A stretch of DNA of 36,294 nt from Patescibacteria group bacterium (GCA_015485575.1 WFTF01000031.1:1-36294); one strand, 5' to 3'. Shown: positions 1-34,451, counted from the stretch's first letter. A program made the numbers and translations. Notes: generated from the sequence alone by a model not told the origin.

Positions 1-128
1 ACATTGGCAAGAGTAAAGGTAATTAAAACCAAAGCAGCCATTCCGACCATAGCGGCTGTCTGCAAACTGTGCGGGCTATAGTCATTACCCTCATGCGGTA
101 TAAAAAAGTCTTTTATTTTTTGACGCAT
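1..128 (-). CDS. N-terminal fragment (42 codons) of a membrane-anchored protein that continues beyond the left edge
   Basis: Truncated, so absent from the ORF track. The reverse-strand ATG at 128-126 reads MRQKIKDFFIPHEGNDYSPHSLQTAAMVGMAALVLITFTLAN: a basic N-terminus, then one hydrophobic helix. A consensus-like promoter lies directly upstream (140-168). Confidence 0.45.
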   Translation of the reverse strand, partial: MRQKIKDFFIPHEGNDYSPHSLQTAAMVGMAALVLITFTLAN

Positions 129-139
129 ATCTTCTTTGT

Positions 140-168
140 ATTATACCATAATTATTATGATATATCAA
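140..168 (-). promoter_or_regulatory. sigma70-type promoter TTGATA-N17-TATAAT with TGg extended -10, serving the gene that starts at 128
   Basis: Read on the reverse strand: -35 TTGATA (168-163), a 17-nt spacer ending TGG, and -10 TATAAT (145-140). Only 11 nt separate the -10 from the ATG. Confidence 0.45.
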
Positions 169-174
169 GCAAAC

Positions 175-834
175 CTATGTGGTCTGTTGTAGAACTATTT
201 CCCGTATCTCCACCAGTCTAGCATACACAATCAAGTTGTTGCTGTATCGCATTTTCCCCCTATCATACTTCCCCGAGCAGGTAATCAATCGCAAGCCTGC
301 ATACTCTATATCTCCATACACCTCTTCTGTGGGAAACGCATCTTGTGACGGAAATGACAATTTCTCAACTCTAAAAACAGCAGTGGAGCCATCGTCTCGC
401 ACTATAAAAATATCGTCTCCCGCCCGCACCTTGCGCAGATTCCATAGCACTGCCGGACCTTGGTATGAGTCCACATGTCCAAGCACCACTGCAGGACCCA
501 CCTCACCGGGGATTGGTCCGTACTTGTAGTATGCTACTGTTTGATATGAGCGCGGCACTTCAATTTCATTATTGCGCTGCAGTCCCAGTGGAGATTCAAA
601 CTCTGCATCAATATCCACTGAAGGAATATTGAGACGTACCGGTATGGGAGTACCGCTCATTGTCACATCTTGAGTAACATCAACTTCCAGAGGACCGATA
701 TCGGTAACATAAAAGGTGGACTGCACATACAAAAAGCGCATCATAAATAACGCACCAACGCTCATGCCCAACAGCCCAAACGCCAGCATGCGTAGATGCC
801 GGCGCAGGTTTCTGTACGTATATCCTCGTAACAT
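175..834 (-). CDS. sortase-family cysteine transpeptidase with one N-terminal TM anchor (class not assignable by eye)
   Basis: ORF 175-861. The sortase His/Cys/Arg contexts are visible: VVLGHVDSY, LRLITCSGKY (TLxTC-like) and NLIVYARL. The hydrophobic anchor is LAFGLLGMSVGALFMM. I placed the start at Met10 (834), 5 nt after the stop of the upstream substrate gene. The ATG at 861 would overlap that gene by 23 nt. Confidence 0.85.
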   Translation of the reverse strand: MLRGYTYRNLRRHLRMLAFGLLGMSVGALFMMRFLYVQSTFYVTDIGPLEVDVTQDVTMSGTPIPVRLNIPSVDIDAEFESPLGLQRNNEIEVPRSYQTVAYYKYGPIPGEVGPAVVLGHVDSYQGPAVLWNLRKVRAGDDIFIVRDDGSTAVFRVEKLSFPSQDAFPTEEVYGDIEYAGLRLITCSGKYDRGKMRYSNNLIVYARLVEIREIVLQQTT

Positions 835-838
835 GTCC

Positions 839-2299
839 TTACACTGATTTGCGTGTTGCAAAAATCACAACCAAACTCAAGAGTAGTATTGCCACCCAGA
901 AGAAAGCAAGATCACGTTGCGTTGTTGCTCCCCCAAAGCCGGTGTTGGGAGCGCCCGCAGGAACAATACTCACTTGCTCTCCCAAAACCCGTGGAATTGG
1001 TTGCGGTGTTTGCGGAGCGGCACCGCCTCCGCCAGCCTGTACTGTCGGTACATCACGATTTATCCTCCTTCCTTGTCCGCCTCCGGAACTTGCCTTGGTT
1101 TGCACTTTTACCGTACACACTGCGGTACTACCTGCATTGTCGGCGGTCAGTGTGTATGCACTACTCCCTTGTACTACGACCGTGGTCGTGCCTGATGTGG
1201 CAACGGTGCCAATTCCGTTGTCAATCGTCACCGTGTTCGCGTCAGCTGTACTCCAGGTGAGCATGACCGTATCACCAGGATTTACCACACTGCGGCTTGC
1301 GTCAAAAGTGCAACTTGGGGTTTGCGATACCGGTGCGGGTGCGCCAACAAATACATTACCGAAATTATAAGGACCCCCCGACACGGGAGTCTGTGCTTGT
1401 GCCACCTTTACAAACAGCGAGAGGGGGAAGAATGCCGCCAACGGCTGGTCAGTAAAATCATCCGGTACGGTGATTACATACGTAGTTGGTGTTGGATATA
1501 CCTGCTTCCACCCTTCTTCAAGTACCTCAGAGAGTGTCCATACACCCTCAGTCACCTCAAAAGAAAAGTATCCCGACGCATCGCTTTGTGTTTGGAGCGT
1601 AGTAGTTCCATTAACCAATTGCAGTTCCCATCCTTCCAAAAACTCCTCATCCTCATCTATCCGTCCGTTTTCATTTGCATCATGCCACACATAGCCGTCA
1701 ATCAAATACACCGGAGCCGGAACAGTATAGACACATGATCCATCGTCTTCTGTTGCCAACATGTCGTAATTGTCCGCTTCAACATCGGTGCACCCGTATA
1801 CCGGTGTCGGCGGAGGAGGTGTTAACGGACGCCACTGGTTGTTGGCGTCACACACATTTGCCGATGTGTCATCTGCAGTGACGGTCATAGTGGTGGACAT
1901 ACCGGTTGGTGTATTGTCACAACCGTATCCCGACCACTTTACCGTCCAGTCTGCAGGCACAAAACCCGGTGGCCCCATTTCCGTCAGTGTGTAATCACCC
2001 TCCGGCAACATAATGCTGCCCATAGCGGTATCGGGGGTAAAGGGGCTTAAGGTGACCAGCTCATCGTAGCCATTACCCACCACCGAAAACGAAAACTGAT
2101 CAGCAGTATAGCCGTCTGGTTGAATGTTGTCGCTTATGTTTTTTGTCAGTATAAACGCATAGGTACTGACGGTGTTTGTCGCGGTATCTTCAGCATACGC
2201 GTACGGCAAAAAGGAGAAAAACATCGCAAAAAAACTGACGCATACAAAAGCAGCAATACTCAGAACAACTATATTGAAACGTGGTATATCTAAAGTCAT
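839..2299 (-). CDS. secreted surface protein with a C-terminal sortase sorting signal (APNTG, TM helix, basic tail) and Ig-like/Cna-B-like domains
   Basis: Signal peptide ending FLPYAYA/EDTA. GDYTLTEMGPPGF is a Cna-B/SpaA-type motif. There is a Cys-bounded CTDVEADNYDMLATEDDGSC motif. IDGYVWHDANENGRIDEDEEFLEGW is an SdrD B-like repeat signature. The C-terminus is VPAGAPNTGFGGATTQRDLAFFWVAILLLSLVVIFATRKSV. Confidence 0.85.
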   Translation of the reverse strand: MTLDIPRFNIVVLSIAAFVCVSFFAMFFSFLPYAYAEDTATNTVSTYAFILTKNISDNIQPDGYTADQFSFSVVGNGYDELVTLSPFTPDTAMGSIMLPEGDYTLTEMGPPGFVPADWTVKWSGYGCDNTPTGMSTTMTVTADDTSANVCDANNQWRPLTPPPPTPVYGCTDVEADNYDMLATEDDGSCVYTVPAPVYLIDGYVWHDANENGRIDEDEEFLEGWELQLVNGTTTLQTQSDASGYFSFEVTEGVWTLSEVLEEGWKQVYPTPTTYVITVPDDFTDQPLAAFFPLSLFVKVAQAQTPVSGGPYNFGNVFVGAPAPVSQTPSCTFDASRSVVNPGDTVMLTWSTADANTVTIDNGIGTVATSGTTTVVVQGSSAYTLTADNAGSTAVCTVKVQTKASSGGGQGRRINRDVPTVQAGGGGAAPQTPQPIPRVLGEQVSIVPAGAPNTGFGGATTQRDLAFFWVAILLLSLVVIFATRKSV

Positions 2300-2427
2300 A
2301 CAATAACGAAACTAGCAATGCTTATAAACGTTTTGATTCTAGTGGCACATCCGCACCTTCTGCTCTACGCACCATACACCAGCTGCTGCAGCAGAACAAT
2401 TGACAAACAACGGCAATATGTCCTGTT

Positions 2428-5400
2428 TTAGCGGAAAAAGCCAAACACCTTTTTAACAAATCCACCCAAGAAACCTTTTTTCTTCTGCGGAGCAGGCTTG
2501 TCTTCCGGTACTGTCTCCTGTTCCGGCTCAGGTTGTGACTCTTCCTGCTGTACCTCTTCCTGCAATGGTGACTTGGAAACAGCTGGTGCTGTCGGAGCAC
2601 TCACCACCTTTGGTTTGGTATACGGCACAACAGCCGGCGCGGGCGGTGTCACAGAAGTTGTCTGAGGTTTGGAGGTGGATACACCGGCAACACGCGGTGC
2701 GGCGTAACCCGCAAGTGTCAACGTGCGTACACGACTTGGCACCGTAAAGGTGTAGTCACCACCAAAGGCAATGTTCTCTTCATCGTTGGCGCGTATACGA
2801 TAGGTGTAGACGACCCCTTCTTGTAATCCCGTAATAATCATGAGATGTTTTGTTTTTTTATCTTGGAACATGAAGCTCTTTTGCGCATAGCCAAAGTTTG
2901 GTTTGGTTACGTTAAACGGTGTGGAAGTTGCCCCTCCATACAGAGGGCTGTAGTACACGCGAGCTGTAGACGAGGTAGACGTTTCCCATGTGACCAACGC
3001 CGAAATTTTACCGTCTGCTCCCGGGAAGTATGCCAACACACCCACATTTCCCACAGCAAGAGCCACTCCTTCAATCACAATGGTATGTACCGCATCATCC
3101 AGTTTCAGTGGTCTACCACCTTGCGCTTTGGTGGTGGAACTGCGGTATGCCTCTATACGGGCGGTGTTGGTGTAGCGACCGCTTGGTGTTTTGATATCGT
3201 ATGCGGTAGTGTAGCTGAGCGTAATCTCCTCCCCGGGGAGAATGGTGCCCAAGTCCCACGACTGCTCACTGATTACAGCACCGATTGGGTTACGCAATGT
3301 GTCATAGACGACCGCATCATACGCCGCACCACCTCCGTTGCGTACTTTAATGGTGTAGTCCACAAACTCGCCCGCCTTAATAATTCTGCTGCGGGGCACA
3401 TCCGCTTCCTTAGTAATGAATAACAGTGGTGCCGCGTCCGGATCAACCTCTTTGGTATACCTGTCTATACTTTTTGTTTTTGCACGACTACCACCTCCTC
3501 CACCTCCTCCGGAGTTGCCGGCGACAGGCGTTGTATTTGTGGCTTCTTCTGTGTCTTCTGTGCTATTCGGGTCCCGAGTGGCAGTATCATCCTGTGGCGT
3601 ATTGGAAACAGTGTTTGGATCTTCAAACACAAGCGTAAACGTCAAGAGTGACGAGTTGTCCGATTCGTTGTTGTCGCTTTCGTCGCTCTGAACTGACGCA
3701 ATGGCCATGACGGTACTGCTGCCATACGGCAGGTCATCGTTTACCACCGCTTGCAATGTATGTGTCACCGAAGCACCGGGTGCAATGGACCCCAGTGGTA
3801 CAGTTTGCTGCGTTGCGTTGTTACCGCCTCGTGCATTTTGCAGTGTCTGCCGCAAGGTAACATTTTGTGCGGGCGTATCACTGTTGTTGGTGATGGTGTA
3901 TTGGTATGAAACTAAGTCACCGGGTTGTAGTGCGGATACATCCTCAACAATGGTACCGGTCAGAGATAAATCCGTCTGTGCGAAGGTTACATTACCATCA
4001 AAGTCACCAAACACGTTGATAACTGCCAGCGTCCAGTTGGTACCGATCACGTTTGTGTTGACTATATTGAGTACGTTGGCACTTGCATAAGCGTCCCCCG
4101 TTTTAATGGAACCCACCAACCCATCAATGCTATTCTCACCGGTCACCGCGTCAATGGAAACGTCGTTGGTAACCGTTGCTGTATTCGTATCGGTGATATA
4201 TGCACTATAGGAATCAACATCGTACGGCAGCAGTGTGGACGGCACAATTTCTGCGTCTTCGTTGTAGATAAGAATACCGTCGGGAGTCCACTGCCATGTA
4301 AGTCCGTCCGGAAGCCCGATTACATCCCCACTCCAAACGCCGTGCACGCGTATGAGCAAGTAAAAAGAGTCCCCTCCGTAGATGTTGGTGTTGACCCTGT
4401 TTACCACATTTGACTCCGACTCACCGGCTCCGGTTTGGATGTCGGAATCAAACTGAGTAGTGGCAGTATTGAGCCCCGTTTCAGCATAGGTTTCCAGATT
4501 ATTTTCCACCACCCCGTCGTTGCTATTGTTGATGGAAATGGTCACCTCCTCCGCGTTTTCGGTCTGTGTCATACCATTTGGACGTCCGAAAAATGCCTTG
4601 AACAACTCTTCGGTAGGCAGCATGAGATCACCAGATAGGTCACCCATGGCGTTTAAAGCAAGCAGGCGATAGTTGGAGTCTATGATATTTGCATTTACGA
4701 CATTGATTATATTCGCCCCACCGTATGCATTGCCCGTTTCAATACTTGCGTAATCACCCTCTGCCGTATTTTCTCCGGTTATCGCTTTTATGGTCGCGGT
4801 GTTGGTCACAACCGCATCGTTATCTTGGGACAAATTATAGATAATGTCTTCGGACATGCAGGAAAGTAGAGTACAATCGTCTGCCAATGCTTTTGTTTGC
4901 TCGGGGTTCGGGAAAAAGAAGTTACGCAAGTCCAAGGACTCTCCGGGTACCACCTCAGTATTCCTCAAATAGAGAAAGCCATCCGAGTTCACTATGTTGG
5001 AATTGACAACATTTGCAACGTTCAAGGCGGAAAAGGCGTCCCCTGTGTATATTTCAGAGGCACTGGTAGAAAGAGCGGTATTGTCACCGGTATTGGAAAG
5101 AATAGTACCCGAGGTATCCACCACTGCCTCATTCGTACCTGTTGCACTAAATGTATAGGTATCCAAGTCTCTGTTGGGATCGCCGGTATTGATACTTTTG
5201 AGATTGCTTGCGTTTACGTCGGTATCAACCTCTCCTTTAGCTTGCGCATCGCCGGTATCTATTCGTGTATTGCGACCGGTGCGAGCAATACCTCCCGTAC
5301 TGTCTTCCGGATTGTCCTCAACGGCACTGTCTCCTATATCGTTTTCGGTTTTGACCGGCAATGGACTTTTACTCGGAGCTTCTCCATCTGCTCCCGGGCT

Positions 5401-6009
5401 ACCCGTTGTGCCCTGTGTGCCATCGGAACCGGCTTCCTTTTTGGTTCCATCTTCCCCAGTGTCACCTTCCCCTGTTACAGGCGTACTACTTGCTGTTTGT
5501 GCCGTGCTACTTGCGGTCTGCCCATCGGCGGCATCACCCTGCCCGTTGCTACCATCTGAGCCGACATCCGTACTAGGTGCAGTGCTACCGTCTGTACCAC
5601 TATCCGTATCCCCTCCAGGCATCCCATTGTCAGATGTGCTCGCGGTGTCACTGTCAGAGGCAGTTGTGACGGGTGTATCAGTATCGCCAGTGCCGGTGTC
5701 TGTGTTTGTATTTTGTATGTCATTCTGCTGTTGCGTTGTCGGCACATCTTGGGCTGTACTACTTGCGCTGGTGTCCGCATGAGACTCTTGCGTATCCTCT
5801 TCGTTTGGTGATGTGTCAGGGGAGCCATCGTTCAATGCAGAGGTGGTGGCATCAGTGGAGCTGGCGGTCGTGGGAGCAGTATCTGTCGTCGTATCGTTCT
5901 GGGCAAAAGCAAGCTGCGGAGGTTGTGTGGAGAAAACCAAAACCACCATTACCATGACGCTGACTGTTGCGCGTGCAATGTGTGTTACTTTAGAGTGAAA
6001 TACCCACAT
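2428..6009 (-). CDS. giant (1193 aa) secreted multidomain surface protein
   Basis: Signal peptide VMVMVVLVFSTQPPQLAFA/QND, then ~200 aa of T/S/D/G-rich low complexity and five TG..TGDA modules (aa ~241-656). Two DUF11/CARDB-like domains follow (LVSYQYTITNNSDTPAQNVTL and FVDYTIKVRNGGGAAYDAVVYDTL). After a poly-Gly linker (GGGGGGG) comes an FN3-like domain (VVYTYRIRANDEENIAFGGDYTFTV), then a Pro-rich linker and a basic amphipathic tail KKKGFLGGFVKKVFGFFR. This is the longest ORF in the window, with many spurious antisense ORFs inside it. Confidence 0.9.
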   Translation of the reverse strand: MWVFHSKVTHIARATVSVMVMVVLVFSTQPPQLAFAQNDTTTDTAPTTASSTDATTSALNDGSPDTSPNEEDTQESHADTSASSTAQDVPTTQQQNDIQNTNTDTGTGDTDTPVTTASDSDTASTSDNGMPGGDTDSGTDGSTAPSTDVGSDGSNGQGDAADGQTASSTAQTASSTPVTGEGDTGEDGTKKEAGSDGTQGTTGSPGADGEAPSKSPLPVKTENDIGDSAVEDNPEDSTGGIARTGRNTRIDTGDAQAKGEVDTDVNASNLKSINTGDPNRDLDTYTFSATGTNEAVVDTSGTILSNTGDNTALSTSASEIYTGDAFSALNVANVVNSNIVNSDGFLYLRNTEVVPGESLDLRNFFFPNPEQTKALADDCTLLSCMSEDIIYNLSQDNDAVVTNTATIKAITGENTAEGDYASIETGNAYGGANIINVVNANIIDSNYRLLALNAMGDLSGDLMLPTEELFKAFFGRPNGMTQTENAEEVTISINNSNDGVVENNLETYAETGLNTATTQFDSDIQTGAGESESNVVNRVNTNIYGGDSFYLLIRVHGVWSGDVIGLPDGLTWQWTPDGILIYNEDAEIVPSTLLPYDVDSYSAYITDTNTATVTNDVSIDAVTGENSIDGLVGSIKTGDAYASANVLNIVNTNVIGTNWTLAVINVFGDFDGNVTFAQTDLSLTGTIVEDVSALQPGDLVSYQYTITNNSDTPAQNVTLRQTLQNARGGNNATQQTVPLGSIAPGASVTHTLQAVVNDDLPYGSSTVMAIASVQSDESDNNESDNSSLLTFTLVFEDPNTVSNTPQDDTATRDPNSTEDTEEATNTTPVAGNSGGGGGGGSRAKTKSIDRYTKEVDPDAAPLLFITKEADVPRSRIIKAGEFVDYTIKVRNGGGAAYDAVVYDTLRNPIGAVISEQSWDLGTILPGEEITLSYTTAYDIKTPSGRYTNTARIEAYRSSTTKAQGGRPLKLDDAVHTIVIEGVALAVGNVGVLAYFPGADGKISALVTWETSTSSTARVYYSPLYGGATSTPFNVTKPNFGYAQKSFMFQDKKTKHLMIITGLQEGVVYTYRIRANDEENIAFGGDYTFTVPSRVRTLTLAGYAAPRVAGVSTSKPQTTSVTPPAPAVVPYTKPKVVSAPTAPAVSKSPLQEEVQQEESQPEPEQETVPEDKPAPQKKKGFLGGFVKKVFGFFR
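4042..5289 (-). repeat. five protein-level copies of the bipartite module TG-x-N-[ST] ... TG-[DN]-A-x-[AS]-x-[AS]-N-[VI]-x-N-x-VN-x-N-[IV] inside the 1193-aa gene
   Basis: ARTGRNTRIDTGDAQAKGEVDTDVNASNL; SNTGDNTALSTSASEIYTGDAFSALNVANVVNSNIV; AITGENTAEGDYASIETGNAYGGANIINVVNANII; AETGLNTATTQFDSDIQTGAGESESNVVNRVNTNIY; AVTGENSIDGLVGSIKTGDAYASANVLNIVNTNVI. Confidence 0.8.
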
Positions 6010-6520
6010 AGGAAGTTAAAATTAAACGAATAGAATAAAGAGCTTGTATGATCTCACGAAAACGTACAAGTGCCTCCTGGCTTTCAGTAATGTCCTCCAC
6101 ATTCGCGACTCCCCGTACCGCCTGAGACTGCGGAAGCGATGTGGTCGCACCGCTGAGGGGCCGCATACTGTCCCACGCTGCCTCTGTACTACTGCTGAAC
6201 GTACTGATCAGTACACTTGCATCGTCAGTGGTGCCACCTACATACTTACGCGACACGGCATCTCCCATGCGCACCACAGAAAACCCACCGCTTGCTCCCG
6301 ACACACCGTCTGCACCGTCCGTCCCGCGTGCACCGTTGCGAGCACTACTCACTTCAACAGCAGACTTGCCTCCCGTAGTGACCGTATTGGTGATGATTGT
6401 CACCGTGGACACACGGTCGGTTGCTACTGCGGAGTCGGACGCGAAAACTAAATTCACTGTACTAAAAGCAAACATAAAGACAATTGACATTGGTAGTACT
6501 TTGTCGTGTATCAAGTGCAT
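5990..6520 (-). CDS. small secreted protein, a weak paralogue of the neighbouring Gly-rich protein
   Basis: ORF 5990-6553. The Met at 6520 gives MHLIHDKVLPMSIVFMFAFSTVNLVFA/SDS, a plausible signal peptide (alternative start 6490). The ATG at 6553 lies inside a conserved upstream hairpin. TTGGKSAVEVSSARNGARGTDGADGVSGASGG...RMGDAVS resembles the SNTGGNTSRGARGGRGG...TGEAVS layout of the 366-aa protein. The 3' end overlaps the start of the 1193-aa gene by 20 nt. Confidence 0.6.
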   Translation of the reverse strand: MHLIHDKVLPMSIVFMFAFSTVNLVFASDSAVATDRVSTVTIITNTVTTGGKSAVEVSSARNGARGTDGADGVSGASGGFSVVRMGDAVSRKYVGGTTDDASVLISTFSSSTEAAWDSMRPLSGATTSLPQSQAVRGVANVEDITESQEALVRFREIIQALYSIRLILTSYVGISL

Positions 6521-6643
6521 ACCCTCTTCGTAAAGTCTGGAACCCACTTCCAAACCTTACGGGAAGGTTCCTCGGTGCGACATACCGAGAAACATAATCC
6601 CGTACATTGGCGCGTCCTGCGCGCTCAATGCGACGTCAGTGTA

Positions 6644-7744
6644 TTAGCGACGTACCACACGTGTAACGTTGCGGTTTACCACATTGGTTACCTCGCTCCA
6701 AGCATCTGCACGTCCGGTGCGTACGGTTCCACCGTCACCACCGTCACCTGCGTTCCCTCCTGAAGCTCCGGTACCGGTATTACCACCAGCTCCGGCGTCA
6801 CCGCTGTCACCGCCGGCACCACCCTCTCCGGTTGTGCCGCCATGACCGCCGTTGCCGCCATTGCCGCCGTTTTGTGCGGCGTCAGAACCGTCAACGTCAC
6901 CATTGGCGTTACCTCCGTCTCCGGCATCACCGCCGTCGCCGGCACCTTGGGTGTCACCGCCCGGTGCGACGTTCACACTGGAACCGCCGTCACCTGCATC
7001 GTCGCCACCGTCGCCGCCATTGCCGCCGCGTCCGCCGTCATCACCTTCTGATTCGTTATCTCCGGTGTTTGCACCTGACGCGACAAGGGTACCCACTTCA
7101 GCACCATTTGCATTTGCAACAACGGCTTCGGTTTCGTCAAGATCCGCGTCTCCCGCGTCACGAACAACGGTAGTTTCGTTGTTGTTTACGTCGTTAGACA
7201 CTTTTGCGGTTGAAACGGCCTCGCCGGTTTCAATGGTTCCACCATCGCCACCGTCGCCGGCATCACCACCGTGACCACCAGCGCCGGTACTACCGCCGGC
7301 ACCTCCTGTTCCGGAGTCACCGCCGTCTCCGCCGTCGCCGGTGTTACCACCGCGTCCGCCGGTACCACCGTTGCCGGCACTTTGTGTACCGTCAACTTCA
7401 TCGTTACCGACTGATCGAGCGTTCCCACCATCGCCACCATAGCCGCCGTCACCGGCTCCTTGAGTGCTGCCTCCTGGTGCGAAGTTCACGCTTGAACCAC
7501 CATCACCTGCGTGGTCTCCACCGTCGCCGCCATTACCGCCGCGTCCGCCGCGGGCACCGCGGGAGGTGTTACCACCGGTGTTAGACTCTGAAACAGCTGC
7601 GGTTATAACAACAGCGCTGTTTTCATTGACAACCAGTACTGAGTCATCTTCATGTGCCGCTGCCGGTAGTGCAAAAAATGCAAACGCCATGGCAGGCAAT
7701 AAAGCAACTGCGGTTGTCTTTTGTATTGTTGTAATTGTCTTCAT
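6644..7744 (-). CDS. secreted Gly/Asp/Asn-rich repeat protein (366 aa)
   Basis: Signal peptide AVALLPAMAFAFFALPAAA/HEDD. Two ~158-aa units are each built from runs of GGDGG/GGNGG/GGRGG/GGTGG/GGAGG, flanked by NTG-x-N-x-S and x-TG-x-A...V-x-N-x-VN-x-N half-modules. The coding strand is strongly G-rich, which creates many spurious overlapping ORFs in other frames. Confidence 0.8.
   Translation of the reverse strand: MKTITTIQKTTAVALLPAMAFAFFALPAAAHEDDSVLVVNENSAVVITAAVSESNTGGNTSRGARGGRGGNGGDGGDHAGDGGSSVNFAPGGSTQGAGDGGYGGDGGNARSVGNDEVDGTQSAGNGGTGGRGGNTGDGGDGGDSGTGGAGGSTGAGGHGGDAGDGGDGGTIETGEAVSTAKVSNDVNNNETTVVRDAGDADLDETEAVVANANGAEVGTLVASGANTGDNESEGDDGGRGGNGGDGGDDAGDGGSSVNVAPGGDTQGAGDGGDAGDGGNANGDVDGSDAAQNGGNGGNGGHGGTTGEGGAGGDSGDAGAGGNTGTGASGGNAGDGGDGGTVRTGRADAWSEVTNVVNRNVTRVVRR
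6653..7636 (-). repeat. internal tandem duplication of the 366-aa gene (units about 7163-7636 and 6653-7126)
   Basis: GGRGGNGGDGGDHAGDGGSSVNFAPGGSTQGAGDGGYGGDGGNA aligns with GGRGGNGGDGGDDAGDGGSSVNVAPGGDTQGAGDGGDAGDGGNA. The DNA copies are clearly related but diverged, e.g. 7441-7560 against 6931-7050. Confidence 0.75.
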
Positions 7745-7959
7745 ACAGTGTTTTAAATTTGTTAATGATTTTTAATATGTGCATGAGAAAGGGTTTCTCA
7801 TATGCCCCCTGATCTGGTCTGTAAAACCCTACGGGAGGGAAACTATCGACCCGTTGAATTGCACTGGTATCAGTACAATTCACGTACAGCCGGACATCTC
7901 AGATATCCGGTTGTATGTGTACTCTACTGCAATGCGATCCGGAGATATTCGGGCATGCA

Positions 7960-7997
7960 AAAAGCCGCTTTTTTATACTAGGAAAAAAGCGGCTTTT
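7960..7997 (-). terminator. intrinsic terminator-like hairpin (15-bp stem, symmetric A/T flanks) inside the leader of the surface-protein operon
   Basis: AAAAGCCGCTTTTTT (7960-7974) pairs perfectly with AAAAAAGCGGCTTTT (7983-7997) across an 8-nt loop. On the reverse strand the stem is followed by a U-tract (GCGGCTTTTTGCATG). Confidence 0.5.
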
Positions 7998-8039
7998 GCG
8001 AGTTCTGAGTTTTGGATGTAGTAAGATGGGTACAATTTT

Positions 8040-8072
8040 TCACAAAGTAACGCATGGAAAGTGACGCACCAT
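8040..8072 (-). CDS. candidate 10-codon leader or micro-ORF (MVRHFPCVTL)
   Basis: Reverse-strand GGAGG (8086-8082), then 9 nt, then ATG GTG CGT CAC TTT CCA TGC GTT ACT TTG TGA. It lies between the tandem promoters (8104-8171) and the terminator (7960-7997). Too short to judge coding potential. Confidence 0.2.
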   Translation of the reverse strand: MVRHFPCVTL

Positions 8073-8103
8073 TCAGTTCCCCCTCCAAACAATGTACAGA
8101 GAC

Positions 8104-8171
8104 ATTCTATGCCCGCTTGCGCAATTGTCAACAAAAACCGTGCAGTATAATACATTGGCTTTTATTGTCAA
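8104..8171 (-). promoter_or_regulatory. two tandem near-consensus sigma70 promoters: P1 TTGACA-N16-TATACT and P2 TTGACA-N16-TAGAAT
   Basis: Read on the reverse strand. P1 has -35 at 8171-8166 and -10 at 8149-8144. P2 has -35 at 8131-8126 and -10 at 8109-8104. This is the same TTGACA-N16 architecture as the groES promoter in this window. Both point toward the 366-aa gene, whose ATG is at 7744. Confidence 0.5.
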
Positions 8172-8341
8172 TACACCTCACTCCGTTGCAACGGTATACT
8201 CAGGTAACAACCTGTCCATACAGGATCGACCAGACCAGGGGAATGAATTTTACCAAGTACGGTAAAATTGTGGCTGGTCGATCCTGTATGGATATGTTGT
8301 CTATGTTCCAAGAAGAAAAAGAAGGCTCTATGCCTTCTTTT
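8158..8341 (+). ncRNA. candidate ~185-nt structured small RNA on the forward strand (unclassified)
   Basis: Forward-strand TTGTCA-N15-TATAAT (8125-8151). Downstream is a small hairpin CCGT-TGCA-ACGG (8183-8194). A long hairpin follows: 8213-8233 pairs with 8274-8294 (21 bp including one G-U) and is capped by AATTTTACC/GGTAAAATT (8246-8254/8261-8269). A terminator at 8316-8341 closes the unit. No match recognised to SRP, 6S, RNase P or tmRNA signatures. Confidence 0.3.
8316..8341. terminator. bidirectional intrinsic terminator ending the sigma/anti-sigma operon on the reverse strand
   Basis: AAAGAAGGC (8318-8326), loop TCTAT, GCCTTCTTT (8332-8340). On the reverse strand the hairpin is followed by TTTTTCTTCTT; on the forward strand by TTTT. 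Confidence 0.65.
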
Positions 8342-8423
8342 CCATACCAACTGCAGTTATATACCATAACACGAAGAAATGCAACGTCTGCGGGAGGTAG
8401 TCCGCCAGCATACGTAACTGTCG

Positions 8424-9350
8424 CTAGAAGTGCATCCGTTTCACTGCAGCGATCTCACCGCACACTCCGCTGCTGTCAGTATCAGTACCCGTAACACCGT
8501 ACACTTCCCTCTCTATCCCCTTTACACGTTCCGCTGCTTCCTTATGTGTATACATACGTCCAATAAATAGCTGACGCTGTTTTTTCATCTCTTGCACATC
8601 TACGTCAGACCCAAACAGCCACGGAAACACGCCGCAGGCATAAAAGATATTTTCAACCATATTGGTGGTGGTTCCAAGTATGCGCACCCGCTTCCCTGAT
8701 AGCAGCAGATCCAGATCCGAACCCGATAATTCGGTGGTGTTCACCTGCCACAGATCTTGCTTGTTCTCGGTACGTACATACACAAAAGTGTCATCCTCGC
8801 CGGCATCTTGCAGACGGCCCAGTAAGCGACCTTCCTCCGGTTGCTGCCATATTTTTTCTTCAAACTCTTCATATGATTCATACATCGGCACTATTTTTGT
8901 GATACCAACATCAATCAAATAACCGACTTTGAAGAAGTGCAGCACAACGCCTCCCACAACACTTAAAACAATACTGCTAAAAATAATACCGCCCATTGAA
9001 TACAGGTATCCTCGTTTGGTACGCCGGACGTTAATATACGCAAGCACTATCATGCTCACAAACAGCGTGAGCCAAAGTGTCGGCAGTATCTCTAGAACAA
9101 AATCCACAACGCGATCATGAGTTGCTTCATACAGTGCGAATCGCGCATAGTTTCCCACATATAATATAACCGCAAGTGCAAGAGCACCCAGTACAACCGT
9201 ACTCAACCACGCCACCCAAATGCTATATTCAACACAAATAAACCACCACTTACTTGCCGGCTGCACCTGCTCTGTACGAATGCGCTTCATCACTCGCTGT
9301 GCGAGCGTGCTGCTTGGCTTATTTTCTGTTGTTTGTATGTCTTTATGCAT
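8424..9350 (-). CDS. polytopic membrane protein immediately downstream of the ECF sigma gene; candidate anti-sigma factor by position only
   Basis: There is a 13-nt gap to the sigma stop codon. An N-terminal ~35 polar residues (AQRVMKRIRTEQVQP) are followed by about four hydrophobic helices and then a ~150-aa acidic soluble domain. No HxxxCxxC zinc anti-sigma motif is visible. Confidence 0.75.
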   Translation of the reverse strand: MHKDIQTTENKPSSTLAQRVMKRIRTEQVQPASKWWFICVEYSIWVAWLSTVVLGALALAVILYVGNYARFALYEATHDRVVDFVLEILPTLWLTLFVSMIVLAYINVRRTKRGYLYSMGGIIFSSIVLSVVGGVVLHFFKVGYLIDVGITKIVPMYESYEEFEEKIWQQPEEGRLLGRLQDAGEDDTFVYVRTENKQDLWQVNTTELSGSDLDLLLSGKRVRILGTTTNMVENIFYACGVFPWLFGSDVDVQEMKKQRQLFIGRMYTHKEAAERVKGIEREVYGVTGTDTDSSGVCGEIAAVKRMHF

Positions 9351-9363
9351 AACCTACTACTTA

Positions 9364-9942
9364 CTATATGTGTACTTGTGTATCGTCTATCAGCTTTTTC
9401 AAACGCTGTTTTCCGCGATAAATGCGCGTCCCCACCGATCCTATGGGGATCTTTAATATGTCCGATATTTCCTCATACTCCTTATGTTCAAAATAACGAA
9501 GGACAAGCACATCGTAGTATTTGCGCTCCAATTGAGAGAGTGCTTGCGCCAATATCTCTGCATTCCGCCGCTTATCAAAACGCAGCTCCGAACTGTCTTC
9601 TTTTGCCATCTCGCGCAGCAAATGTTCATCACCCTCATCAATCAAGTGTCCCTCAGGGCGTACCTGTTTCTTCCTATAAAAAGAAATGGCTTCGTTGTGC
9701 GCAATACGATAAATCCAAGAGGAGAAAGAAAGAGTGGTGTCAAAGGCGTTCAGATTACGATACACTTTGAAAAAAATTTCCTGCAACACATCCTGAGCAT
9801 CTTCATGATTGCGTATTCCTAAACGGCGCACATACCGAAACAATTTCTCCTCGTAGCGCATCACAATGTGCTGAAAAAACGACTGGTCACGCAATACCAT
9901 TGACACTATTTCTTCGTCACTCATAGAAGTGGGGTGTGACAT
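9364..9942 (-). CDS. ECF-type (group 4) sigma-70 family RNA polymerase sigma factor
   Basis: Region 2 motifs are LQEIFFKVYRNLNAFD and SWIYRIAHNEAISFYRKK. The region 4 HTH is VLVLRYFEHKEYEEISDILKIPIGSVGTRIYRGKQRLKKL. At ~190 aa it has no region 1.1 or 3. An alternative start is Met7 at 9924. Confidence 0.92.
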   Translation of the reverse strand: MSHPTSMSDEEIVSMVLRDQSFFQHIVMRYEEKLFRYVRRLGIRNHEDAQDVLQEIFFKVYRNLNAFDTTLSFSSWIYRIAHNEAISFYRKKQVRPEGHLIDEGDEHLLREMAKEDSSELRFDKRRNAEILAQALSQLERKYYDVLVLRYFEHKEYEEISDILKIPIGSVGTRIYRGKQRLKKLIDDTQVHI

Positions 9943-10008: not shown

Positions 10009-10014
10009 ATACGC

Positions 10015-10557
10015 ATGTACCACAAACATATTTCATACATCATTATCGGATTCTTTATATCCGTGTTGCTGGCAACACCGCTTTCAACCTACGCATACTA
10101 CACAACCGCTCAAAATGCGATACGCCTTACAGACAACATCGCTCTCTATACCATAGACTTCACCTTTGGTTTTCCCGACCGAGATGTATATATCCCCATT
10201 GCCACCAAACGGGACATAGAAAATAACCCGCAGAACCCATATATGGGATACACCTTTTACACCAGTACAGGTGGAGACCCGACTGTCGGTACTGCAGCGG
10301 GATTGGTACTCAGTAGCGCAGACATAGAGAACAACATGTATAAAGTACCCGCAGGTGAACGTGGATACTTCACTCTGGTGGTGTTTCTCACTCTGGATCC
10401 GGAAGCGGACCCGAAAGCAAAATATGGGCTGCAGGTAAGCAATCTCCCATTCATCACACAAGAAGGAAACACGATTCAACGCTTTGGACTAAACAAGCAC
10501 GAACTCCAAGCATATAAAACCAAAAAGGTCGGACTGTTACCTCAAAAACGTCTGTAG
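10015..10557 (+). CDS. secreted hypothetical protein (180 aa)
   Basis: Signal peptide IIIGFFISVLLATPLSTYA/YYT. Clean ORF ending at a convergent terminator. No recognisable domain. Confidence 0.7.
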   Translation: MYHKHISYIIIGFFISVLLATPLSTYAYYTTAQNAIRLTDNIALYTIDFTFGFPDRDVYIPIATKRDIENNPQNPYMGYTFYTSTGGDPTVGTAAGLVLSSADIENNMYKVPAGERGYFTLVVFLTLDPEADPKAKYGLQVSNLPFITQEGNTIQRFGLNKHELQAYKTKKVGLLPQKRL

Positions 10558-32578: not shown

Positions 32579-33694
32579 CTAGGACACTAATTTTTTATGC
32601 AGTTGCAGTAACATGGCACCCAGGGTCGCGCTACAGAGTGCGATTACAAGCAAAGCACCCAGTACAGGTATTGCTAAAATACTCAGAAGCAGCAAGGTCC
32701 CCACTATCACGGTAGATAAACTCACCGTAGCATCCTTGCGAAATACGCGCAGAAGAAAGACGCCGGATATCATTGCCGCATATGCGAAACTCAGGAGATA
32801 CAGCGCGAACAGCAGTGCAAAAACAGCCAACCCCAACCAAAAGCCCAACACCGTAATCATTAACAGAACAGACACAAACGGGCCGAAGAAAAGTACGGCT
32901 AGTCCAAGTGCGATACTCTTGCCTGAATGTCTCTCCAACATGGAAATGACACTCACGGTAAAACGGCGGCTTACCATATAGAGTACCAAAGTGGTAAACA
33001 ACATCACAAAAATCGGAGTTAAAATCTGCCGATACAGTTCTTTTTGTGAAATGGGTTCGGTCTGCTGCTTGGTAATTTCTCCTTCAACAATAGCCTGAGG
33101 GCTGCGCGATAACTCGGTCAAACTGGTATACCGTATATTTCCGGATACTCGCGCATCTTCGGTGAGAACCATACCCGCAGCTGCGGTTACCACCACATCT
33201 TTTGCAACCAAGCCACCGATAGTCAAATACTCCATCTTTCCATATACAGATCCGGCGACCTCACCCTCAATGGTAACCGACCCTCCAAATACAAAGACAT
33301 CACCCGCCACCGTTGCAGTGGACAAAATACGTACCTCACCTCCAAATATAAAGACATCACCTCCGACACTATCAGCAATCGTTACTTCCCCACCTACAAT
33401 GCGGACATCATCTCCCACAGGAGCATGTATCTGAGCGGTGCCGGCAAGAATGGAAACGTCTGTCCCCACCTCACCGTTCACCGTTACAGACGCACCCAGT
33501 GCGTACATATCTTGTGCAACAGAACCGGACATGACCGTTGTACCAAACGGCCCCACCGACACATAGTAATCTCCGGCAACCAACTGATCAGCATCCACCG
33601 ACACATCGTTGCCACTGCGCAAGACTGTTTCAGCGTACACACCTACAGGGAGAGTGACTGCCAGCAAGGTACTTAGTGCGATAATGTATTTCAT
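32579..33694 (-). CDS. exported bactofilin-like beta-helix repeat protein with a polytopic C-terminal membrane domain
   Basis: I placed the start at MKYIIALSTLLAVTLPVGVYA/ETV (33694), which removes the overlap with the upstream gene. Repeats include VGDDVRIVGGEVTI, VGGDVFIFGGEVRI and VAGDVFVFGGSVTIEGEV. About five TM helices follow. Confidence 0.8.
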   Translation of the reverse strand: MKYIIALSTLLAVTLPVGVYAETVLRSGNDVSVDADQLVAGDYYVSVGPFGTTVMSGSVAQDMYALGASVTVNGEVGTDVSILAGTAQIHAPVGDDVRIVGGEVTIADSVGGDVFIFGGEVRILSTATVAGDVFVFGGSVTIEGEVAGSVYGKMEYLTIGGLVAKDVVVTAAAGMVLTEDARVSGNIRYTSLTELSRSPQAIVEGEITKQQTEPISQKELYRQILTPIFVMLFTTLVLYMVSRRFTVSVISMLERHSGKSIALGLAVLFFGPFVSVLLMITVLGFWLGLAVFALLFALYLLSFAYAAMISGVFLLRVFRKDATVSLSTVIVGTLLLLSILAIPVLGALLVIALCSATLGAMLLQLHKKLVS

Positions 33695-33704
33695 AGTGAT
33701 AGTG

Positions 33705-34451
33705 TTAGGCTTGTGAATTTGAGGAATGGTGCGCATGCTCTTCCATAACCGCAGCAATTGCCTCCTCTTCTTTTTGTCGTTTTTCCTCTTCTTTTTGTAT
33801 GGTCGATTGTGCAATGTTTTGTTTCTCGTGCAAGTTCATAAGAGAAAAAGTAATCATTGCCGCCAATAGAATACCAAGGAAATTCAACAAAAGCATGTTA
33901 AATGATCCTGCAATAACAGTCATATCAAACATGGCAATACCCGCACCGAGTACCGCAAGCGGTGGAATCAATGCGACAGAGATGGCAATTCCCGGCAAGG
34001 TCTCACTCCACTCGGGCTGTGCAAGGGCAAATGACACCGCCGCTCCCGCTATAAAGGCGACAAAAAAATATATGGGAGAAGGATCTAAGCGTATGAGCAT
34101 CTGATTGGTCACAAAGCCATCTCCAAACAAGAGAGTTGCCAGTATTGCCAATACCAATCCAATGGTAACCGACTTGGTCAATGTAACAGTGGAGCGACGC
34201 AATACCTTTGCGTTTGACATAACCAAACCTAGGGCGATTCCCAAAATGGGATATAAAATGGGAGCAATGAGCATACTTCCGATCACCACAGAAGGGCTGT
34301 CAGCAAGCAACCCGAGTGTCGCCATAAGTACGGACAGGCCTATTAAGTAGAAAAAGTCAAAATTTGGTGTACTGCTCTGCATCAGCTTGCGTACCACCGC
34401 AGCTTTATCTTTCTCTTCAATAGCGCGAAAACGTGCGAAAAAGGAAGGCAT
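33705..34451 (-). CDS. DUF389-family hydrophobic membrane protein
   Basis: VVIGSMLIAPILYPILGIALGLVMSNAKVLRRS matches the DUF389/TIGR00341 core as I recall it. It has multiple TM helices and an acidic/basic C-tail. Confidence 0.75.
   Translation of the reverse strand: MPSFFARFRAIEEKDKAAVVRKLMQSSTPNFDFFYLIGLSVLMATLGLLADSPSVVIGSMLIAPILYPILGIALGLVMSNAKVLRRSTVTLTKSVTIGLVLAILATLLFGDGFVTNQMLIRLDPSPIYFFVAFIAGAAVSFALAQPEWSETLPGIAISVALIPPLAVLGAGIAMFDMTVIAGSFNMLLLNFLGILLAAMITFSLMNLHEKQNIAQSTIQKEEEKRQKEEEAIAAVMEEHAHHSSNSQA

Follow-up and report, generated by a model that had tools for sequence, protein, structure and literature searches.

A 36,294-nucleotide (nt) stretch of DNA from a Patescibacteria group bacterium (GCA_015485575.1 WFTF01000031.1:1-36294), referred to here as the window, carries on its minus strand the genes for an extracytoplasmic function (ECF) sigma factor and a membrane protein, followed by genes for four exported proteins and a sortase. 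The question raised by this locus is whether these genes constitute a single surface-protein system with a regulator of its own, and what kind of structure such a system would build. A sortase-dependent surface locus beside an ECF sigma/anti-sigma-type pair is a known kind of system. From gene content, homology, conserved gene order, promoter motifs and predicted structures, we consider it moderately likely that the genes belong to a conserved cell-envelope cluster of Paceibacteria-type bacteria of the Candidate Phyla Radiation (CPR), made up of three separable units: the sigma factor with its cognate partner, a four-gene cassette with a control region of its own, and an anchoring unit. The genes in question are the following.

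9364 to 9942, minus strand: ECF sigma factor of 192 amino acids (aa), with Pfam r2 and r4_2 regions and a TIGR02937 match.
8424 to 9350, minus strand: membrane partner of 308 aa, an open reading frame (ORF) with no Pfam family.
6644 to 7744, minus strand: Gly-rich secreted protein of 366 aa, an ORF kept across 11 loci.
5990 to 6490, minus strand: small secreted protein of 166 aa, with the ATG taken from the annotation of a relative; the ORF reaches 6553.
2428 to 6009, minus strand: big secreted protein of 1193 aa, identified from the ORF, Pfam matches and a structure model.
839 to 2299, minus strand: SpaA/SdrD_B-like sortase substrate of 486 aa, an ORF with weak SdrD_B/SpaA matches.
175 to 834, minus strand: class-F-like sortase of 219 aa, matching PF04203 and NF033748, with an N-terminal transmembrane (TM) anchor.
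1 to 168, minus strand: promoter-like site (168-140, scoring 11/12) and the start of a gene for a CAP-domain membrane protein (126 to 1), which leaves the window.

ORF calling confirmed all seven genes from the sigma factor to the sortase that were listed in a preliminary description of this DNA. The tiny gaps or overlaps reported there between the last five were found at two of the junctions, where the genes for the small and big proteins overlap by 20 nt and the sortase ATG lies 4 nt past the substrate stop codon, but the other two junctions are wide, with 90-153 nt between the Gly-rich and small genes and 128 nt between the big and substrate genes. The Gly-rich, small and big proteins are hereafter termed the trio, and the trio together with the SpaA-like substrate gene is termed the cassette.

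The host is a Patescibacteria (CPR) bacterium of the Parcubacteria type. The closest public record, contig WFOL01000007.1 of GCA_015488135.1 (L081), has the same layout and encodes a big protein that is 99% identical, and the record titles of more distant relatives name Candidatus Kaiserbacteria, Nomurabacteria, Parcubacteria and Paceibacterota. Loci of relatives, drawn from genome collections and metagenome contigs, are given L-numbers, and the locus of the window is designated WIN. The trio was found at 13 distinct loci (WIN/L081, L001, L082, L083, L085/86, L087, L102, L106, L110, L128 and L130-L134). A scan of the genome collections with the sortase as query identified 15 CPR loci and 65 actinobacterial loci (L015-L080), and 42 loci were obtained from metagenomes by scanning with five aligned partner proteins.

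Conserved synteny had been proposed as a check on the grouping of these genes, and the order sigma factor, partner, (trio), substrate and sortase does recur in relatives whose big protein is 42-55% identical to that of WIN. At the trio-bearing loci, a SpaA/SdrD_B-type substrate gene comes next in 12/13, a sortase gene then follows in 10/13, and the sigma-partner pair lies no more than 3 kb upstream in 9/13; in L083 and L130, a second protein with a sorting signal is encoded between partner and trio. The order sigma factor, partner, substrate, sortase and CAP is also found without the trio (L004, L005, L007, L093 and L103), with an ECF-type promoter before the substrate gene at some of these loci, and this is likely the older arrangement. 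In the lineage of WIN, the partner and substrate genes are separated by the trio cassette with a control region of its own. The content of the partner-to-sortase stretch is highly variable, ranging from 167 to 1,634-aa proteins with the trio present or not.

The three exported proteins other than the substrate had been assigned to one module family. Pairwise BLASTP indicates only weak relatedness, but the assignment is supported by profile-profile comparison, which linked the Gly-rich family with the big family (97% probability, E 1e-10, 68 columns) and the small protein with the Gly-rich family (90% probability, E 2e-6, 38 columns). All three have signal peptides and no anchors of their own. 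The Gly-rich protein has two half-modules, both split by a (GGX)n insert, and is better conserved than the big protein, with 57-65% against only about 45-55% identity over 11 loci. In the small protein, a half-module is combined with a collagen-like stretch of GXY repeats and a C-terminal helix that is conserved (LxxLQLxLxxYVSxLF). The big protein begins with a disordered acidic region, followed by four long beta-hairpin modules (residues ~240-680), two CLIPPER/DUF11 domains, an FN3-like domain and a Pro-rich tail ending in GFxxxxFGFFR. PF01345 was matched with 53.2 bits in two stretches, as in a tandem CLIPPER stalk, and relatives of the big protein also carry CLIPPER_2. CLIPPER, formerly DUF11, has been shown to be a stalk domain with isopeptide bonds in fibrillar adhesins (PMC12617251). 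The big protein is built like those adhesins in that its two CLIPPER domains and FN3-like domain come after a putative functional region at the N-terminus; unlike them, it lacks a wall or membrane anchor of its own, and its four-module region cannot be assigned to any family or fold described so far.

The module region (residues 235-690) was predicted by AlphaFold2 to be an all-beta repeat with strands of 22-25 residues (predicted local distance difference test score 89, predicted template modelling score 0.85). It matched no Pfam family, and a Foldseek comparison with PDB and BFVD returned no significant neighbour, the best in PDB being the amyloids FapC and CsgA at non-significant levels (E 0.07-0.15, probability ≤0.02). 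The full-length model of the big protein gave only generic Ig/FN3 tandems in Foldseek, e.g. integrin legs, mastigoneme and RbmA. When 1.84 billion cluster representatives were searched exhaustively with phmmer, 1,506 matched with E ≤1e-3 and 460 with E ≤1e-30, and most matches are 800-1,250 aa in length with the module region near the N-terminus. A profile search with the Gly-rich protein returned only unnamed Patescibacteria proteins and missed close orthologues, probably since low-complexity words filled the candidate list. A PF01471 peptidoglycan-binding domain is present in distant homologues of the big protein (P0034, P0041, P0048, P0052, P0060 and P0065), which hints that some members of the family may bind the wall non-covalently.

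The trio might instead form a secreted amyloid-like or matrix fibre that is independent of the sortase, in which case the SpaA-like protein and the sortase would be a separate, ordinary anchoring pair encoded downstream. The trio is indeed found without a sortase at L082, L087 and L134, the 128-nt gap before the substrate gene includes promoter-like sequence, and FapC and CsgA, while not significant, are the only fold neighbours of the module. However, the loci at which a SpaA-like gene follows the trio (12/13) include two of the sortase-less ones, Foldseek matches with a probability of ≤0.02 do not establish similarity to Curli or Fap, and the predicted module is a long-strand sheet rather than a curli-type short-repeat solenoid. 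A sortase-independent fibre is thus considered rather unlikely.

The sortase matched PF04203 with 63.7 bits, and the catalytic motifs with His (GHVDS), Cys (LITCSG) and Arg (MRYSNN) are present. Class F is the best sortase class by far (NF033748, 158.2 bits, which is just under the curated cut-off of 166; class E, 19.8 bits), and a sequence search of PDB found nothing. As previously noted for this DNA, the substrate is the only protein with a sorting signal. It ends in VPAGAPNTGFGG, with APNTG at nt 952-938, followed by an 18-residue hydrophobic stretch (TM) and RKSV, and hence in the tripartite arrangement of motif, hydrophobic segment and basic tail. Among the 13 CPR sortase loci having upstream sequence, 12 have a gene directly before the sortase that ends in [VILM]PxGAPx[TA]GxGG, a hydrophobic segment and a basic tail, Thr often being swapped for Ala. 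Many actinobacterial class F sortases are preceded by the same signal type, e.g. VPVGAPSTGLGG or IPLGAPQTGAGG, and many of the upstream genes end in xPxGAPxTGxGG, a TM segment and RRR. The view that APNTG is unusual was rejected because GAPxTG signals adjoin class F sortases in Actinobacteria too, and the motif is an ordinary class-F-type signal, a variant of LPXTG with Ala first.

The CPR substrates range from 167 to 1,504 aa, and those of relatives include SpaA, SpaA_2, SpaA_4 or SdrD_B domains above the Pfam cut-offs. As compared with the actinobacterial class F systems, the catalytic domain is 38-48% identical and the substrate gene is likewise immediately upstream, with the xPxGAPxTGxGG, TM segment and basic tail in common. 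The differences are that the present host belongs to the CPR, that the class F score (158 bits) is under the curated 166, that the CPR signals often have Ala for Thr, and that a CAP membrane protein is a conserved neighbour. A rule of one sortase and one substrate with a distinct signal is suggested for class F, in Actinobacteria and CPR alike. That CPR genomes often encode sortases has been reported before (PMC6744442). What class F sortases do physiologically has not been established, even in Actinobacteria, and Propionibacterium acnes SrtF is cited as the only characterised enzyme of the class (PMC13251363). Going by established sortase chemistry, the most likely role of the WIN sortase is to attach the SpaA-like protein to the cell wall.

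The end of the cluster had been placed at position 175, after the sortase. This boundary was not upheld, as the CAP-domain (PF00188) membrane protein gene found past the sortase in most CPR loci, which starts at 126 in WIN, is the conserved partner of the sortase. The full CAP gene is present in the closest relative (L081:15894-17045), with a conserved N-terminal motif FIPHxGNxYxPH, and at some loci the CAP gene follows a large surface protein, the sortase being absent. Past CAP, genes for an S24 (UmuD/LexA-like) peptidase and a DinB/ImpB-type polymerase are regularly found (L081:17119-19690, L083, L085 and L133).

The layout had also been likened to an adhesin or pilus locus. A sortase-dependent surface-protein locus is what was found, but not one for a pilus. 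Assembly of a pilus, with a major pilin polymerised by the sortase, would accord with the gene layout and with the SpaA-type domains of orthologous substrates. However, the locus has a single class-F-type sortase and none of class C, there is one sorting-signal protein where at least two would be expected, no YPKN-type pilin motif is present in the substrate, and the length and domain content of the substrate vary freely among relatives. In light of the missing class C sortase and pilin motif and the single sorting signal, the pilus was rejected as highly improbable.

For the sigma factor, matches to PF04542 (Sigma70_r2) and PF08281 (r4_2) were accompanied by a score of 98.8 bits against the ECF model TIGR02937 (cut-off 42.9), and the Pfam scan gave no match for region 3, so that, as in ECF factors, only regions 2 and 4 were found. 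The partner gene is 13 nt past the sigma gene and co-oriented, and in the metagenome scan a sigma gene was directly upstream of the partner gene in every locus with usable upstream sequence. Hydropathy of the partner indicates a basic 40-residue N-terminus and hydrophobic segments at ~42-66, 85-106 and 118-141, and the alignment reveals a C-terminal domain of ~165 residues with two invariant Cys. The partner has no Pfam or NCBIfam match, including to a zf-HC2/RsiW-type anti-sigma domain, and a sequence profile search of PDB found no relative. Its family has at least 208 homologues, all unnamed, all from Patescibacteria and none with a Pfam family. The partner is a candidate anti-sigma factor, and its Patescibacteria family has not been described. 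Two features lie at the upstream end of this pair.

10010 to 10034, minus strand: ECF-type promoter of the sigma gene, TGAAAT-N16-CGTATA, with the motif kept in 21 loci.
10015 to 10557, plus strand: orf180, encoding a small protein with a signal peptide and no Pfam family, divergent from the sigma gene.

The motif TGAAA[TG]-N16/17-CGTA was found upstream of the sigma gene in 21 loci, and its AAC-type -35 and CGT-type -10 elements are those expected of an autoregulatory promoter. The SigW consensus, TGAAAC-N16-CGTA, is close to the TGAAAT-N16-CGTA of WIN. The -35 box overlaps the first codons of orf180, which has a hydrophobic N-terminus and is held divergently beside the sigma gene in many loci; at L002 and L013, it adjoins a substrate-sortase pair and the sigma gene is absent. 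The same ECF motif is present just past the partner gene in L004, L088, L089, L090/L092, L109, L114, L117 and L127, and in degenerate form in L007 and L094. With a background of ~3e-5 per nt, ~0.25 matches would be expected in the post-partner intergenic stretches. In L004, the motif precedes a gene for an 829-aa sorting-signal substrate followed by a sortase, and in L090/L092 it precedes that for a protein of 1,620 aa, with CAP next in line. The WIN partner gene ends with a TGAAAC...CGTATG pair, which was dropped as an ECF promoter because its spacer is 23 nt long. Where at least 3 kb downstream of the partner was available, the pair adjoins surface, sortase or CAP genes in ~14/20 loci, and at the loci with the most distant partners, small unrelated genes come next. 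In L095 (2813-7594), L099 (11178-16007) and L102 (11153-16057), the product of the post-partner gene is ~1,600 aa long and has several hydrophobic segments at its end in place of a sorting signal, and CAP is next, with the sortase absent.

The cassette is preceded by a non-coding block of ~680 nt, from the partner stop codon (8424) to the ATG of the Gly-rich gene (7744), which includes the following features.

8358 to 8384, minus strand: P0, a sigma-70-like site, TTGCAT ... TGGTATATA, kept in WIN, L085, L001 and L132.
8311 to 8343, minus strand: T0, a hairpin with a U-run (-16.8 kcal/mol, z -3.9).
8216 to 8290, minus strand: E3, a very stable long hairpin (-46.9 kcal/mol).
8104 to 8171, minus strand: tandem sigma-70 promoters P1 (8171-8144) and P2 (8131-8104), scoring 11/12 each.
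8040 to 8086, minus strand: G-rich box GGAGGGGGAAC, present in WIN, L085 and L131, and a 10-codon mini-ORF (8072-8040).
7957 to 7999, minus strand: T1, a strong intrinsic terminator in the leader (-21.6 kcal/mol, z -4.6).
7806 to 7883, minus strand: E8, comprising a hairpin (7883-7853), GGTCGA (7852-7847) and GACCAGATCAGGGG (7819-7806).

This block is a conserved unit ahead of the Gly-rich gene and travels with it in 11-13 loci, sigma-less loci included. The terminator formerly assigned to the end of the partner gene does exist as a hairpin (T0), but it is part of the block, and an equivalent is also found in loci without the sigma pair. The tandem promoters were correctly placed upstream of the Gly-rich gene. 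The promoter scan of WIN as a whole was not above shuffles (10 found vs 12.6 expected), and the calls gain their weight because a pair at the P1/P2 position is conserved in nearly all 13 loci examined, with the promoters facing the operon in 13/13. T1, on which the preliminary description was silent, has an equivalent 180 to 235 nt before the ATG at most loci, and because so strong a terminator sits in the leader, a single uninterrupted transcript from the tandem promoters, as had been proposed, is doubtful. The entire leader folds far better than shuffles (z -5.7). When it was compared with Rfam using gathering and E-value thresholds, no family was found, only chance-level miRNA-like matches on the terminator hairpin.

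The outer stem of E3, which includes GGATCGACC/GGTCGATCC, has 24 pairs in the RNAalifold consensus, 7 of them with compensatory changes. It encloses a variable inner hairpin, the sequence of which is wholly different between loci with the pairing kept, and the 3' bulge reads CAUUCCCC. A hairpin of the same architecture and a different sequence is present in L083, L130, L082, L128 and L102, and in the first four of these a promoter-like site before the hairpin and a U-run after it were recognised by eye, as in a small RNA gene. The hairpins of this group have a C-rich bulge with complementarity to a G-rich box past the promoters; variants of the box occur in other loci, and duplex energies are stronger for cognate or same-group pairs than for cross-group pairs. 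In WIN and L085, GACCAGATCAGGGG (7819-7806) is an inverted copy of 8241-8228, giving a 14-nt inverted repeat that brackets the promoters and the terminator (93% complementary, arms 385-408 nt apart). L001 has a 12-nt version (92%) in which both arms share one substitution. No recombinase gene is adjacent to this promoter segment. The sequence GGTC[GA]A is found 85-123 nt before the ATG in 10/14 loci scanned, including 8 of the first 10, and the stretch after GACCAGATCAGGGG is AT-rich with no Shine-Dalgarno sequence. The block could represent a small RNA with its target (RNA-RNA pairing), an attenuator or an invertible promoter. A conserved leader peptide was rejected, as the mini-ORFs vary in sequence and length among loci, and a type I toxin-antitoxin system made up of E3 and the mini-ORF was dropped, the peptides not being hydrophobic and toxin-like. 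A 146-aa ORF on the plus strand (8054-8494), annotated in L081 (7516-7956), runs antisense across the structured block and is probably not a real gene.

These results bear on the earlier claim that the sigma factor and its partner are a dedicated regulator of the surface genes. In favour of the claim, an ECF-type promoter precedes the sigma gene and is found past the partner gene in at least eight relatives, but no such promoter is present near the WIN operon, where that of the sigma gene itself is the sole good match to the motif, and the cassette has its own sigma-70 promoters and is also found without the sigma pair. Since the cassette and its own control region sit between the partner and the substrate, the WIN cassette, and probably also the substrate and sortase genes behind, are probably driven by the sigma-70 promoters and structured leader and not by the ECF sigma factor, and the ECF pair is probably not a direct activator of the cassette.

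Several observations weigh against a coherent envelope cluster. Strict and loose scans of WIN found the ECF motif neither before nor inside the cassette. At L001, L082, L087 and L134, the sigma pair is missing although the cassette and the region upstream of it are present, and at L082, L087 and L134 the cassette also lacks an adjacent sortase. The class F score of the sortase falls short of the curated cut-off. The flanking genes are also syntenic, with BipA, an S4/pseudouridine synthase (RluB-like) and an HI0933-like flavoprotein on one side and the S24 peptidase and DinB on the opposite side, and part of the conserved order may be backbone synteny, i.e. inherited gene order. As an alternative, the association could be one of position only: the sigma pair would control itself and other targets, e.g. 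orf180 or small downstream genes, the partner-sortase stretch would be a variable slot for cassettes, and the WIN trio would be under its own promoters and leader. The missing ECF motif, the syntenic backbone and the wide variation between partner and sortase all fit this explanation, as do the movement of the cassette and 680-nt block independently of the sigma pair and the small unrelated genes next to the most distant partners. However, an ECF-type promoter lies directly before the gene for a large surface protein in L004, L088 and L090/L092, and the pair is beside surface, sortase or CAP genes in ~14/20 partner loci. Association by position only is considered possible but doubtful.

Under the favoured explanation of a conserved envelope cluster, the first unit would be the ECF sigma factor and its cognate 3-TM partner, which most likely holds the sigma factor at the membrane as an anti-sigma factor; the sigma factor would drive its own promoter and, in relatives, also the gene past the partner. 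The second would be the four-gene cassette with its conserved tandem sigma-70 promoters and ~400-nt leader containing the terminator and hairpins. Its products would be the Gly-rich (GGX)n protein, the small collagen-like protein, the ~1,200-aa protein with four modules and isopeptide-type stalks, and the SpaA/SdrD_B-like protein with the sorting signal, and all four would be exported by Sec. The third, for anchoring, would consist of the class-F-like sortase and the CAP-domain membrane protein. The sortase is predicted to cut GAPNT/G and to join the SpaA-like protein to the cell wall. Because the trio proteins have signal peptides and no anchors and travel together with the substrate gene, we infer that they may assemble on or beside the anchored protein to form a surface fibre or coat.

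Among known regulatory systems, SigW/RsiW of Bacillus is similar in that SigW is the best NCBIfam match of the sigma factor (118.6 bits, far below the equivalog cut-off of 209) and in being an autoregulated two-gene unit, but differs in that the present partner is without a zinc-finger anti-sigma domain. In Streptomyces, long chaplins are sortase-anchored and short ones are not, and the chaplin sortase belongs to class E. The chaplin and rodlin genes are controlled by the ECF factor sigma-BldN and the structurally novel membrane anti-sigma factor RsbN (PMC6101532). As in that system, the gene adjacent to the present ECF sigma factor encodes a membrane protein unlike known anti-sigma families, here a candidate anti-sigma factor. 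Unlike it, the present proteins have no sequence relationship to RsbN or the chaplins, the partner has three TM segments, and an ECF promoter precedes a surface gene only in relatives and not in WIN. Sigma-BldN/RsbN would nonetheless be the closest functional analogy.

Elsewhere in the window, a 411-aa protein encoded at 32579-33814 on the minus strand has repeated GDVxxxGGxVxI motifs followed by several hydrophobic segments, and may be a fusion of a bactofilin-type polymer domain with a membrane domain.

The elements of the cluster may also be joined in a more far-reaching proposal, which as a whole we consider improbable. The trio would be an undescribed heteromeric surface fibre that is tethered via the SpaA-like protein anchored by the class F sortase and serves as a host-attachment organelle of Paceibacteria. 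Its expression would be set by a new switch in the 680-nt block, consisting either of E3, acting as an adjacent small RNA that pairs with the leader, or of an invertible promoter with the 14-nt repeats at its ends. The ECF sigma factor and 3-TM partner would represent a sensor of a new class, responding to the envelope or to contact. A role in host attachment is by itself a reasonable inference.

In the literature that could be searched, this combination of elements has not been described, and neither have the partner and module families, the conserved Gly-rich protein or the structured control region. CPR/Patescibacteria are thought to live attached to other cells, and we know of no attachment structures identified for Parcubacteria-type lineages. 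The cluster provides a concrete, widely conserved set of candidates for such structures, which includes a wall-anchored protein that comes with a dedicated sortase, three secreted proteins that are inherited together and share an undescribed module carried by ~1,500 cluster representatives, an ECF sigma factor with an unannotated partner family of >200 members, and a long conserved structured control region. For the class F sortases, a clear signal type and a dedicated-substrate rule are gained, which would be valid in both Actinobacteria and CPR.

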